From: Alphaproteobacteria bacterium
GTDB lineage: Bacteria; Pseudomonadota; Alphaproteobacteria; UBA828
Reading direction: 5' to 3'
DNA length: 64,000 bases
Assembly (NCBI GenBank): GCA_965214705.1
Contig: OZ243972.1
Span: forward strand, 960,001-1,024,000
Positions 44,765 to 48,585 of the stretch are shown here, piece after piece. The number at the start of each line of letters is the position of its first letter. The first letter of the stretch is position 1. The notes below the pieces were generated by a model, which saw nothing but the letters and a program-made list of their open reading frames with translations, ran no database searches and was not told where the DNA came from. The position numbers were made by a program, and so were the translations under genes.

Positions 44765-46147
44765 CTACTGGACCCGGTACTCCTCGTCGAGGAAGAAGCG
44801 GCTGTCATAGTCCTCGACGCCAAGGTGGCACTCAGCGCAGAAGACGACGTTCTTGGCGCCCTTGCCGCCGGTCGTGCCGATCGTCCGGCCGCTCGGCATG
44901 ATCAGCGTGTAGCGCCAGTCGCCGGTATCGGCGTCGAAGCCGGCTTCCATCTTCTCCATCAGGAAGAGCGGCCCGGCGCCGATCTTGCCGTTGGGTTTGA
45001 CGGTGAAGCTGTCCTTGGCCAGAACGGTTCCGACGGGCGCTGGCCCCGCCTCTTCGAACTGGCTGTAATTGTCGGCGCCGATGTCGTTGGCGTAGTTGTT
45101 GACGTAGCGCGCGCCGTGGGTATCGGAGACGTAGGGTTGGGCCGCGACGTTCCGCCAATTCTGGTAGGACGCCGCCCACTGATTGCCCGACTTGGCGTAT
45201 CCCTCGGCCATGACCGCACTGATGCAGGCGTAGGCGTCTCGGGCCTCGTCTGCGGTCAACTCGACCTCTTCGCCGGCCGCGCAGGGGTTGCATGGATTGC
45301 AGGCGCCGCACGGGCCGCAAGGGTTCGCCGCACACGGGTTGCAGGGGTTGCACGGTCCACAGGGGTCGCAGGGATTGGCCGCTGCGCACGGATTGCAGGG
45401 GTTGCAAGGGCCGCATGGGTTGCACGGCTCGCACGGGCTGCAGGGACCACAGGGGCTGCAGGCTGCGGCGCAAGGGTTGCAAGGCCCACAAGGGTTGCAG
45501 GCTGCAGCACAGGGATTGCACGGATTACAGGGAGCGCACGGTCCGCAAGGGCTACAAGCACTCGCGCAGGGATTGCATGGACCGCAAGGAGCACATGGCC
45601 CGCAGGGGCTGCCAGCGGCAGCGAGGCGCGGAACCACGCAGTCCGAACTGACCGCAGCGCCCGCCGCGCACGGGTTGCAGGCGCCGCACGGCCCGCAGGC
45701 GCCCGCACAGGGATTGCAAGGGTTGCACGGTCCGCAAGGGCCGCAGGCGCCCGCACAGGGGTTACAGGGCCCACAGGGGTTGCATGCAGCTGCGCAGGGG
45801 TTGCACGGATCACATGGATTACACGGTCCGCAAGCACCACAAGCGGCGTCACAGGGGTTGCAAGGATTACACGGCCCACACGCAGACGCGCAGGGATTGC
45901 ACGGTTCGCACGGACTGCATGGTCCGCGAGGTCCGCATACCGCCGCGCACGGGTTGCACGGACTGCATGGTCCGCACGGGTTGCAGGAGGCGAAGAGCAG
46001 CACTCCCGGATCCTGATGCTGCGGGGTCGCCGCCGGGCTTTCGCCGGTGGATGTACCGGCCGTTGCGTGGCCGCCACTGGTGGCGACCGCGAGCCCGATG
46101 ACCACAGGGACCACCGTTCCGGCAAGCAAGGTGTTCGAGCGTGGCAT
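44765..46147 (-). CDS. Exported cytochrome P460-family protein with a long N-terminal Cys-X-Pro repeat region
   Basis: ATG at 46147 after AGGGAGG, then a signal-like N-terminus and about 235 aa of CxP repeats. C-terminal domain has [36 protein letters not shown] and a C-terminal CAECH. Confidence 0.85.
45281..45985 (-). repeat. Coding tandem repeat, (Cys-X-Pro)n in two blocks
   Basis: 9-bp periodic TGY-NNN-CCN units; two blocks separated by [18 protein letters not shown]. Confidence 0.95.
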
Positions 46148-46279
46148 GTCGGGCCTCCCTTGATGGCGTGATGGCGGCACTCTGAGCGAATTGTCGGCGA
46201 GCGCATGGTGCGGGGCAAACCCCTTCGACTCAAATTTTTGTGATTCCCGTGCCGGGTGAGCGGCAGCTAGGCTGCTGCA

Positions 46280-47155
46280 ATGGTTTTCTCCCGCGCACTT
46301 CTTGCGGTCTGTCTCGCGACCTGTGGCCTGGTCCTCGGGGGCGCTTCATATGCTGGTTCGGTGCCAGTTCCAGTCCTGGCGGAGGTCCCGGCCGGCCCCT
46401 TCATCGCGGGCTCCGACGCGGCCGAGCGGGAATACGCCTACCAGCTCGACGAGGCGGCCTACGGCCACTCCCGAACGCGGGAGCGCGGCTGGTACGATCG
46501 CGAGCGCCCGCGCGGAACCAAGTCACTGGACGGCTTCTTCATCATGCGCACGCTGATCACCAATGCCCAGTACGCGGCGTTCGTGGATGCCACGGGCCAC
46601 CGCGTGCCCGATGTCGATCCCGAGACCTGGCGCGGCTACAGGCTGATCCACCCTTACGAGCGCACCCGCCGCCACGCGTGGACGGAGGGAGTTCCGCCGC
46701 CTGGGCGCGAAAACCATCCCGTGGTCATGGTCTCGCACGACGACGCCAATGCCTACGCGGCCTGGCTCTCGGCCGAGACCGGGCGCGCCTGGCGTCTCCC
46801 CACCGAGCTGGAATGGGAGAAGGCCGCACGCGGCACGGACGGCCGCAACTTCCCCTGGGGCGATACGTTCGACCCAGCGCTGCTCAACAGCCACGATGCC
46901 GGTCCCTTCGACACGCTGCCGGTCGGGAGCTTTCCTGCCGGTGCAAGCCTTTACGGCCTCCTCGATGCGGCAGGCATGGTCTTCGAGTGGACCGCCTCGC
47001 CCGGCAATACGGGGCGCTTTCTGGTGAAGGGCGGATCGTGGGACGACAGCGGCTGCGGCATCTGCCGCCCTGCGGCACGGCACGGCCGGCCGGCGGACAT
47101 CAAGCACATCCTCGTCGGCTTCCGCCTCGTCGTCGATCCGGGCGCGGGGGGTTAG
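46280..47155 (+). CDS. Formylglycine-generating enzyme (SUMF1/FGE-sulfatase) family protein, probably exported
   Basis: Signal-like N-terminus, [57 protein letters not shown]. Confidence 0.9.
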
Positions 47156-47237: not shown

Positions 47238-47999
47238 ATGGCCCAGGCTTCAGCGGCGAAGAATGAGCGGCAGGAGGAGACCCGCCACCTCGACATGGCG
47301 ACACAGCCGGTGAAGCGGCTGCGCATGATGCTCGCCGCCGGCGAGGAGGTGCAGGAGGTCGAGCGGGTGCTCGGCAGAACCGGCGATAATGTGGTGAGCG
47401 AGCTGCTGCGCGGGCGCGGGACGTTCTACGAGTGGGACCATTACCCGAAAGGGGACGTCTTCGACGGTCAGAGCCACTCCCAGTATTTCTACCACGCCCA
47501 TCCCGGCGGCTTCCGGGATACCGAGCACGGGCATTTCCACACCTTCGTGCGCGCCAAGGGGATGCCGCGCGGCATGAAGCCCGTGCGCCGCAAGAAGCGC
47601 GACAAGTGGCCCATGGGTGACAAAGCGCTCACCCACGTCATCGCCATCTCGATGGGGTCGAAGGGTCAGCCTCTCAGGCTTTTCACCACCAACCGCTGGG
47701 TCACCGGCGAGACCTGGTATCGCGCGGATGACGTGGCAAAGGTGATCGGCCGCTTCGTCATCGACCACGCCCGCCCGTCATGGCCGACCAACCGCTGGGT
47801 CGGCGCCATGATCCGCCTCTTCTGGCCGCAGATCATCCTGCTGGTCAAGGCGCGTGATCAGGTGATCGAGAACTGGGCTGCCCAGAATCCGAAGCAGGAT
47901 ACCCTCGAAGATCGCCGCCTCGAGGTCGTCTCGCAGGCCGAGGTGGATATCGAGGCCCAGATCGCCGCAGTCAAGGCGGCCCTCGCCGCGAGAACCTGA
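47238..47999 (+). CDS. His-rich conserved protein, DUF6969-like
   Basis: WDHYPKGDVFD, QYFYHAH, EHGHFHTF, THVIAISM, LFTTNRWVTGETW, LEDRRLEV. Family recalled from motifs, not verified by search. Confidence 0.75.
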   Translation: MAQASAAKNERQEETRHLDMATQPVKRLRMMLAAGEEVQEVERVLGRTGDNVVSELLRGRGTFYEWDHYPKGDVFDGQSHSQYFYHAHPGGFRDTEHGHFHTFVRAKGMPRGMKPVRRKKRDKWPMGDKALTHVIAISMGSKGQPLRLFTTNRWVTGETWYRADDVAKVIGRFVIDHARPSWPTNRWVGAMIRLFWPQIILLVKARDQVIENWAAQNPKQDTLEDRRLEVVSQAEVDIEAQIAAVKAALAART

Positions 48000-48041
48000 G
48001 GCGCAGTCGGCCCGCCGCTGTCACGGCTCCCGTACCGCAAC

Positions 48042-48069
48042 AAAGAACGCCGCCTCTCCCGAGGCGGCG
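48042..48069 (-). terminator. Rho-independent terminator of the small Cys-rich peptide gene
   Basis: CGCCGCCTC-N4-GAGGCGGCG stem followed on the minus strand by TTCTTT. Confidence 0.75.
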
Positions 48070-48100
48070 CCCTTGGATACCGTTGTCGTTACTCTCAAAC

Positions 48101-48415
48101 TTACTCGGCAGCACACGGATCGCACGGGTTGCAAGCCGCGCACGGGTCGCACGGGTTGCAGGCCGCGCACGGGTCGCACGGATTGCAGGCATCCGCGACA
48201 ACGATGCGCTCGTCCAAGGAAGATTCGCACGGATTGCAACCGCCGCATGGGTTGCAAGCCTCGCACGGGTTACAGGCCCCGCACGGGTTGCACGGATCCT
48301 CGTGCGAGTCCGCAACGACGATCGGCTGCTCCCCAGCGGACACGGCCGACGGCGCAAGAGCGGCGCCGGCCGCCATGGTAACGATACTCACGGCGACCAC
48401 TGTTTCCTTGATCAT
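48101..48415 (-). CDS. Small exported Cys-rich peptide with CNPC/CDPC repeats (104 aa, 17 Cys)
   Basis: Strong GAGGAGGAG RBS, Sec-type signal ending AVSA, two IVVAD-led Cys blocks, its own terminator. Confidence 0.85.
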
Positions 48416-48585
48416 TTTCGTAGTCTCCTCCTCGCAGACGCGAATTTAGTTGGTTTGAATTGGGGCTTCGCGCCGCCTCGGCGGACTGTCGAACCATGCG
48501 AAGCCCATGTCATTGTGGTGTATATCGGCAGTGCGCAAAAGTGCTTTCGTTTCAATGACGCGAATTTGAACGCCGGAGACGACCG

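Follow-up and report, generated by a model that had tools for sequence, protein, structure and literature searches.

A conserved Cys-repeat peptide gene found with DUF6969 and with Cys-repeat haem proteins in Alphaproteobacteria

The 64,000-nucleotide stretch analyzed here (the window; positions 960,001 to 1,024,000 of contig OZ243972.1, assembly GCA_965214705.1) belongs to an alphaproteobacterium of the UBA828 lineage and carries, on its minus strand, a gene for a 104-residue peptide in which a Sec-type signal peptide precedes two cassettes, each with a hydrophobic-Ala (IVVA) motif and a block of regularly spaced cysteines. The genes at this locus are, in order, cytochrome c (-), Cys-repeat P460 protein (-), FGE-like protein (+), DUF6969 protein (+), the peptide (-) and CysQ (+); their coordinates are collected in Table 1. 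An earlier reading of this DNA, made from the sequence alone (the sequence-only reading), had reported a signal peptide, the two-cassette layout with 17 Cys, an acidic mature region and a strong ribosome-binding site, and all of these are recovered here, the signal peptide being judged by eye. Between the first motif and C42 the peptide reads SHEDP, and the C-terminal end after C101 is AAE. The mature part of 77 residues has 17 Cys (22%), 12 Pro, 13 acidic residues, one basic residue, one His and no aromatic residue, and the Cys-Cys spacing is 3 throughout, except for one gap of 14 over the linker. At the DNA level, tandem repeats are found at 48107-48190 (27 nt, 3.1 copies) and 48226-48292 (18 nt, 3.7 copies). 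AlphaFold2 predicts no fold for the peptide (mean predicted local distance difference test (pLDDT) score of 42.9), no Pfam or NCBIfam family matches it at E <= 0.1, and a protein atlas search with the peptide returns solely 'hypothetical protein' clusters, below 0.9. A polyproline-II or collagen-like thiol ladder, as might be read from the period-3 repeat, was also considered, and nothing was found in its support.

The gene had also been credited with its own terminator. A GC-rich hairpin with a U-rich tail is indeed present after the stop codon, and for the 86-nt stretch 48020-48105 a folding energy of -36.2 kcal/mol (z = -3.1) is calculated, but since the hairpin lies between convergent genes, the terminator may be shared with the DUF6969 gene. 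A simple consensus terminator scan does not call this hairpin, and a sigma-70 promoter scan gives no match at the peptide locus.

The peptide region has a G+C content of 67%, and because several overlapping open reading frames (ORFs) are open on both strands, an open frame by itself proves nothing here. A homologue search of 5.8 billion protein clusters (size range 57-182 aa) finds 61 small homologous proteins with a near-invariant N terminus and variable CNPC arrays, and the length differences between orthologues are whole repeat units. When the first 36 codons of 28 homologous genes, taken from fetched DNA, are compared, the substitutions at the three codon positions number 98, 74 and 336, and the same leaders have 234 synonymous versus 157 non-synonymous codon changes. 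The codon-position pattern shows that the minus-strand frame is coding; judged from these comparisons, the peptide gene is a real and conserved gene, whose product is a small, Cys-periodic peptide with the features of an exported one. The warning of the sequence-only reading that gene callers could go wrong at this gene is well founded, as several database entries have out-of-frame tails, and an ORF picker based on third-position G+C (GC3) goes to a wrong frame when applied to the paralogues. The whole gene is spanned by metatranscriptome-library contigs from relatives (X2, 48085-48484; X3, 47947-48472), in which stretches without cover carry no meaning, and these contigs give a weak hint of transcription. 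Both are from one study and both have an in-frame 9-nt deletion (three codons) at 48165 in the second Cys block, which is strain-level variation within the repeat.

Table 1 Features of the peptide gene, its neighbours and its paralogues
Feature	Position	Strand	Basis or remark
Coding sequence of the 104-aa Cys-repeat peptide	48101..48415	-	stop included; ORF list and homologue substitution pattern
Sec-type signal peptide, residues 1-27	48335..48415	-	MIKE, 18-residue hydrophobic core, VSA/G; judged by eye
First PIVVAD motif, residues 31-36	48308..48325	-	V33 invariant in alignment A1
Cys block 1, (CNPCxx)x4, residues 42-63 (C42-C63)	48227..48292	-	ORF translation
Linker ESSLDE and second RIVVADA motif, residues 64-76	48188..48226	-	ORF translation
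Cys block 2, (CNPCDPCAA)x3, residues 77-101 (C77-C101)	48113..48187	-	ORF translation
Shine-Dalgarno-like GAGGAGGAG	48425..48433	-	9 nt upstream of ATG
GC-rich hairpin (13-14 bp) and U-tract UUCUUUGUU, likely intrinsic terminator	48039..48073	-	between convergent genes
DUF6969 protein, no signal peptide, conserved His cluster	47238..47999	+	PF22308 at 5e-84
Periplasmic FGE-sulfatase-domain protein, conserved GCG[VI]C, signal peptide	46280..47155	+	PF03781 at 5e-45
Cys/NPC-repeat protein, 471 aa, C-terminal cytochrome P460-like haem domain	44765..46180	-	PF16694, CAECH
Class I cytochrome c, downstream of the P460 gene	44242..44661	-	PF00034 at 1.8e-11; start presumed at Met55 of the listed ORF
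Contig-2 paralogue	L044:8009-8233	-	ends CCADPCNPCAC
Contig-3 copy	L045:8669-8887	-	same peptide type, leader missing

The distribution of the leader is narrow, its first 37 residues matching 10 cluster representatives among 1.84 billion. The 43 related loci found in a species-genome collection are all from metagenome-assembled genomes, and 40 of them are labelled Alphaproteobacteria or an order or family of this class; the exceptions are L039 (Desulfocucumis), L041 (Gastranaerophilales) and L043 ('Proteobacteria bacterium'). The L039 sequence, from a Desulfocucumis palustris contig, is a Firmicutes ORF with CDPCAPCNPYGPWAAP repeats and no leader similarity, and it is probably an unrelated Cys/Pro repeat caught through low complexity. 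The four RNA runs with matches carry the labels sponge or marine metagenome. In the source genome itself (7.9 Mb, 3 contigs) a second intact copy is present on contig 2 and a 5'-truncated copy, probably a pseudogene, on contig 3; both sit in integrase/toxin-antitoxin islands, and the conserved protein encoded beside them, about 270 aa long, matches a zinc ribbon weakly. In the database sequence P0181 the same leader is joined to a relaxase-like fragment. Alignment A1 (34 sequences) has 11 invariant columns, nine of these within residues 1-27, and the N, P and C of each repeat unit are near-invariant over wide divergence.

The hydrophobic-Ala motif is preserved as well. In the 28 homologues compared, the residues ahead of the first Cys fit P-[ILM]-V-[VL]-A, distant peptides carry an I-Q-I-A-A type motif instead (SIQIAA or TIQLAA), and in the forms fused to P460 and cytochrome c domains the motif is h-x-L-A-[SA]-C. 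The sequence-only reading had proposed to check conservation of the motif by a homologue search, and it is found to be kept before the first Cys across the family and in the Cys-repeat haem proteins, and to be present again in each extra cassette. Among 72 distinct leader-bearing peptides (at least 4 Cys each; the set includes a few frameshifted database entries) the strict motif occurs once in 51, twice in 7 and three times in 4, with a variant motif only in the other 10; more than one cassette is seen in 11 of the 72, the range being 1-3 cassettes and 4-22 Cys. The multi-cassette forms are mostly in the closest clade of the window peptide, where linker and motif recur once or twice more in the close relatives L001-L005, the number of cassettes being two in L001 and L005 and three in L002, L003 and L004. 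There is conservation of flanks such as SSL[DG][ED]x-IVVA[DE], with simple repeats as cores, and in the multi-cassette sequences P0003, P0004, P0014 and P0031 the flanks have diverged (SSLGEPIVVAE, ASFGEPIVVAE, SSLGDRIIFAD), the hydrophobic tetrad being kept. In the multi-cassette sequences the cassette is thus duplicated as a unit, from just past the signal-peptide cut through the Cys block. A lipobox, [LVI][ASTVI][GAS]C, was considered for the motif and rejected, as IVVA is followed by DSHEDP before the first Cys and charged residues (GEQ) stand between the hydrophobic core and the motif; the IVVASC or IVLASC of some relatives has no more than a resemblance to a lipobox.

The repeated motif had led to the suggestion of a multi-core precursor of a peptide made on the ribosome and then modified after translation (RiPP), with the motif as recognition or cleavage signal. 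The comparison follows a cyanobactin-like logic: a conserved flank is combined with a variable core, present one to three times, whose copy number varies between close relatives. The differences are that no enzyme of a known class, protease or exporter is found nearby, that most peptides have a single cassette and that the cores are of low complexity. Pfam scans of the ORFs at 36-57 kb (reaching about 12 kb below and 9 kb above the gene in coordinates) find no RiPP-class enzyme, protease or ABC exporter, the sole radical SAM protein in this range being MoaA-like with a Mob_synth_C domain. None of these is found at the locus of the contig-2 paralogue either, which stands alone in its integrase/toxin-antitoxin island, and the MNIO gene (PF05114) has 0 matches in the genome, which is 98.47% complete. 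The motif is repeated with each cassette, as had been noticed, but the suggested multi-core RiPP precursor finds no other support here, and the idea survives only as the DUF6969/FGE-like maturation scheme considered below, which is itself doubtful.

The same repeat occurs on haem proteins, beginning with the one encoded at this locus. The P460 protein has a signal peptide, two long Cys-repeat blocks with 24 CNPC units and, directly before the first of these, VLLFAS, exactly as the sequence-only reading had it. Its haem domain is recognized by PF16694 at 3e-8 (34.5 bits versus a cut-off of 27), and its CAECH aligns to the CAQCH (CxxCH) of PDB entry 7s5o; the gene may in truth start not at the listed GTG but at an ATG 11 codons downstream. 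In the database fragment P0025 the leader of the peptide, PIVLAS and CNPC repeats run straight into a P460 domain. According to precomputed Pfam assignments, the 117 longer relatives include 66 with PF16694, 14 with PF21342 (SoxA/TsdA-type cytochrome c) and 3 with PF03150 (one of them shared with PF21342); 3 have a spurious zf-CXXC match and the remainder have no Pfam domain. In the PF21342 forms NPC repeats are present on both sides of the haem domain, and h-h-h-A-A-x-C is found at the first N-terminal Cys. Many Alphaproteobacteria thus fuse the NPC-repeat module to periplasmic c-type haem domains, and at the level of sequence the peptide is a free-standing copy of the N-terminal module of these proteins, in which (NPC/CxxC)n comes after a hydrophobic-Ala motif. 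What is conserved in distant members is the unit NPC, e.g. AAKNPCAAKNPC, and the spacers are Lys-rich, not acidic; acidity and strict CxxC pairing are not universal among them.

Several further features of these haem proteins were seen. In P0062, P0065, P0093, P0094, P0107, P0157 and P0171 the NPC repeats flank a single SoxA/TsdA-like cytochrome c domain, and some of the SoxA/TsdA-like proteins have poly-Glu spacers. All Cys-repeat P460 proteins (also in L020-L040 and L087-L095) have a central [DESK]C[VAIF][VI]PR[LIV] between the two repeat blocks, a short motif that is preserved even among widely diverged members. A cytochrome c gene adjoins the P460 gene in 16 of 41 loci, and in three related loci a gene for a plastocyanin/azurin-type cupredoxin starts where the Cys-repeat P460 gene ends (L029:7023-7370, L036:2950-3297, L038:6840-7187), followed by a gene for a methyl-accepting chemotaxis protein.

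In the main rival to the reading preferred below, which is possible though on the whole not likely, the repeat is a sulfane-sulfur or thiol-redox carrier, whose CxPC units would cycle between dithiol, disulfide and persulfide or polysulfide forms. As part of the same proposal, haem enzymes of the periplasm (P460-like, SoxA/TsdA-like) would use it as a flexible arm of many Cys that carries or stores redox equivalents or sulfur, and would pass electrons on to cytochrome c or cupredoxin. This is consistent with the position of the module, before P460-like domains and on both sides of the SoxA/TsdA-type cytochrome c, and with the small electron-carrier genes after the P460 gene. It also agrees with the genes of sulfur metabolism described below, which recur at DUF6969 loci, and with CysQ as immediate neighbour of the peptide gene here, and FGE-family enzymes all do thiol chemistry according to one preprint (bioRxiv 10.1101/2021.05.21.445229). 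The PF21342 matches are, however, weak (E 1e-5 to 6e-9) and maybe reflect a generic cytochrome c fold, the sulfur genes adjoin DUF6969 and are one step away from the peptide, and genome G048 has the peptide, with no P460 homologue found.

The association of the peptide gene with its neighbours extends beyond the window. CysQ, DUF6969, FGE-like and P460 genes are all beside the peptide gene in 14 of the 43 related loci, and in the more distant loci L021, L030, L031, L042 and L043 the FGE-like, DUF6969 and Cys-repeat P460 genes occur together in rearranged order. Within the same taxonomic family inheritance of the partner genes is not strictly joint: peptide and DUF6969 are present in both G048 and G351, but G048 has an FGE-like orthologue elsewhere and no P460 homologue that could be found, and G351 has a P460-like gene that lacks the repeats and no FGE-like orthologue. 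Co-occurrence was assessed in a sample of 401 genomes of the class, of which 91 have DUF6969 (one of them, the unpublished G240, is counted in this tally only). At least two matches of the DNA pattern for NPCxxxNPC are present in 41 of the 401, and the reversed-pattern control gives single matches in 5 genomes. By hand cross-tabulation, DUF6969 is present in 38 of these 41 genomes versus 53 of the 360 others, and in the three genomes that lack it (G149, G352, G290) stop codons interrupt the pattern matches. With profile A2 (E <= 1e-70), the FGE-like orthologue is found in 33 genomes, 32 of which have DUF6969 and 20 of which have at least two NPC matches. Because genomes in the sample are related, co-occurrence is overstated, and with hand-counted groups these figures describe a strong tendency and are not a statistical test. 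DUF6969 is the gene most tightly linked to the NPC-repeat proteins, and by association the peptide, the cytoplasmic DUF6969 protein, the FGE-like protein and the Cys-repeat P460 protein, together with the cytochrome c beside it, belong to one system.

When 30 DUF6969 loci, each from a different genome, are viewed with 1.5 to 7 kb of flanking DNA, an NPC/Cys-repeat ORF is seen in 17, an FGE-like gene in 15 and a P460 domain in 8. An FGE-like, P460 or repeat gene was not found in the fetched flank of 8 of the 30 loci, seven of which cover about +/-7 kb (one, L056/L081, having only a weak P460-like match of 35% identity) and one +/-1.5 kb. Other neighbours are DUF2336 (9 loci), rhodanese-like proteins (6) and YeeE-type Sulf_transp proteins (4), the loci concerned being L052/L078, L053/L079, L055/L090, L057/L088, L059/L092, L060/L082, L061, L065/L086 and L070/L094; SCO1 and a sulfite/nitrite reductase are seen once each, and FixI/FixH/FixG are also neighbours once.

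In DUF6969 the residues H68, H86, H88, E96, H99, H101 and H133 are invariant, with H97 present in at least 90% of the sequences, and this conserved His/Glu cluster suggests a metal site. The AlphaFold2 model is confident (pLDDT 90.3, predicted template modelling score 0.89). It has no match in the PDB at E <= 1e-3 by Foldseek and a best Z of 3.5 by VIA-align wide, and the protein atlas search returns solely DUF6969 clusters, so that the fold of DUF6969 may be new, although poor or absent matches are no proof of this. A cupin, as could be read from the HxH...E...H pattern, was considered, and the fold searches give no support for it. The FGE-like orthologues have a mean column identity of 70%, and their conserved stretch VKGGSWDD[SK]GCG[VI]CRPAARH holds C259, which is invariant, and C262, which is present in 23 of 24; the best solved relative is ToxD, which is not an FGE. 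When a complex of residues 27-291 of the FGE-like protein and residues 28-104 of the peptide was predicted, both runs gave a score of 0.00, which carries no verdict.

These neighbours could form an unrecognized maturation system, in which DUF6969 (before export), the FGE-like protein (after export) or both would modify the Cys residues of the NPC repeats into a new metal- or sulfur-binding chemistry. If IVVA is the recognition element of such a system, the multi-cassette peptides would be true multi-core precursors. The presence of DUF6969 in nearly all genomes with NPC repeats or the FGE-like orthologue, the frequency of repeat ORFs and FGE-like genes beside it, its His/Glu cluster in a confidently modelled protein that matches no known fold and the retention of IVVA in every duplicated cassette all favour this proposal. 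It is also favoured by the likeness to FGE substrates, since C-x-P, which forms the core of the motif recognized by FGE, is present in each CNPC, and the gene two positions away encodes an FGE-family protein in which two Cys are conserved. The substrate motif of FGE is, however, C-x-P-x-R in sulfatases, as given in bioRxiv 10.1101/2021.05.21.445229, and the peptide does not fit the general form [C/S]-x-P-x-R, as the residue after CNPC is G, E, D or A and Arg is never found at +4; distant homologues have NPC with no preceding Cys (AAKNPC) and so lack any C-x-P. In addition, G351 has the peptide and no FGE-like orthologue, DUF6969 is present in 53 genomes without clear NPC repeats, 8 of the 30 loci have none of the partner genes in their flanks, no protease or exporter is encoded nearby, and relatedness of the genomes inflates the co-occurrence. 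A maturation system of this kind, and with it the multi-core reading, is regarded as decidedly unlikely.

A precedent for RiPPs that carry a Sec signal and are rich in Cys is provided by the bufferins, described in PMC11626156 as MNIO-modified, Sec-exported, copper-chelating RiPPs. The likeness lies in the Sec-type signal peptide in place of a classical leader, the Cys-rich periplasmic product and the association with cytochrome c and FGE-sulfatase domains, for which triads and fusions of Buf1, Cytochrom_C and FGE-sulfatase are reported in PMC12452194. The genome of the peptide has, in contrast, no MNIO gene (PF05114, BufB) that could be found, so that by the enzyme criterion the peptide does not count as a bufferin; its associated genes are instead those for DUF6969 and the FGE-like protein. 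It has no match to the bufferin precursor families (DUF2282/Buf1) in Pfam and NCBIfam, libraries that do not hold the authors' Buf_6/12Cys profile.

It is also conceivable, but very unlikely, that the repeat binds no ligand and serves only as a structural element crosslinked by disulfides, or as a spacer of low complexity, its tandem array drifting and being retained just for export and tethering. The repeat number is hypervariable and driven by the DNA tandem repeats, AlphaFold2 finds no fold for the peptide, and the repeat of the P460 protein has a weak, sub-threshold match (E 0.012) to the Pfam sperm Cys-Gly-Pro family MSSP, all of which speak for such an array. The near-invariance of N, P and C over wide divergence, the specific recurrence of the module on haem proteins and the tight co-occurrence with DUF6969 argue against it.

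The reading preferred here, with a probability of roughly one in three (0.35), is that the peptide is a disordered, periplasmic, metallothionein-like poly-thiol buffer of soft metals, Cu(I) being the first candidate; more broadly, it probably binds soft metals or carries sulfur or electrons by means of its thiols. Export of the pre-peptide would be through Sec, and signal peptidase I would cleave it after VSA, releasing a 77-residue, very acidic, aromatic-free and presumably disordered peptide with 17 thiols at i,i+3 spacing. Each CNPC pair would then chelate a soft metal ion, so that the peptide would fold only around metal-thiolate clusters, and IVVA might, more speculatively, form a short beta-strand, through which the Cys blocks would be nucleated, paired with each other or docked to a partner. 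An extra cassette would be a recent tandem duplication that adds capacity and not a second core for excision.

The soft-metal buffer is in agreement with the small size of the peptide, its high Cys content in CxxC arrangement and its lack of aromatic residues, and with the variation in repeat number at preserved Cys spacing. The low pLDDT and lack of a confident fold are as expected of an apo-metallothionein, if the predicted disorder is that of the apo form. The paralogue, moreover, stands without a dedicated neighbouring enzyme, and the context has a copper flavour (the FGE family, the cupredoxins of L029, L036 and L038, SCO1 and FixI/FixH/FixG), FGE-family enzymes holding Cu by two active-site Cys according to bioRxiv 10.1101/2021.05.21.445229. 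The conserved GCGxC of the local FGE-like protein and the combination of Buf1, Cytochrom_C and FGE-sulfatase reported for the copper-chelating bufferins, as an analogous triad, point the same way. By composition the sequence of the peptide falls within the definition of a metallothionein, being small, CxxC-rich and free of aromatics with no stable predicted apo fold; it is not a member of a metallothionein sequence family, and it differs by its NPC tri-residue unit, its IVVA motif and its signal peptide. To our knowledge, the known bacterial metallothioneins (e.g. SmtA/BmtA) are cytoplasmic, unlike the exported peptide proposed here. The peptide also differs, as a disordered multi-Cys repeat, from Csp1, a periplasmic Cys-based Cu(I) store that is a folded four-helix bundle, and from SoxY, in which a flexible arm with a single Cys on a folded domain serves a cytochrome.

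Several observations weigh against a metal buffer. No curated metallothionein profile of Pfam or NCBIfam matches the peptide, and DsbA may, in the oxidizing periplasm, turn the CxxC pairs into plain disulfides. The NPC units of distant members, sometimes with one Cys per six residues, fit chelation by CxxC pairs less well, and net charge is not conserved, being acidic here and Lys-rich in those members. The recurrent neighbours of DUF6969 are sulfur-trafficking genes (rhodanese-like and YeeE-type, with CysQ at this locus), copper-resistance genes not being recurrent among them. The hint of transcription is only a weak one, because the matches are contigs and RNA libraries can contain DNA. The observation that is least well explained is the near-obligate link with DUF6969, which a passive metal sponge leaves unaccounted for.

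A search of full-text literature (subscription journals and supplements being outside its scope) finds nothing on CNPC or NPC repeats, DUF6969 or Cys-rich P460 proteins; the Asn-Pro-Cys/NPC motif matches only aquaporin-11 and CENP-C, and 'cytochrome P460' with formylglycine gives no relevant result. If metal binding is true, the peptide would be a secreted, periplasmic metallothionein-like buffer, a term for which ('periplasmic metallothionein') the same kind of search found nothing, and it would be relevant to metal handling in uncultured marine and sponge-associated Alphaproteobacteria. The NPC/Cys-repeat tails on periplasmic P460-like and cytochrome c proteins are a recurrent, unstudied module, for which the peptide offers a simple stand-alone model substrate, and DUF6969, a family with no assigned function and apparently a new fold, gains its first testable functional context.

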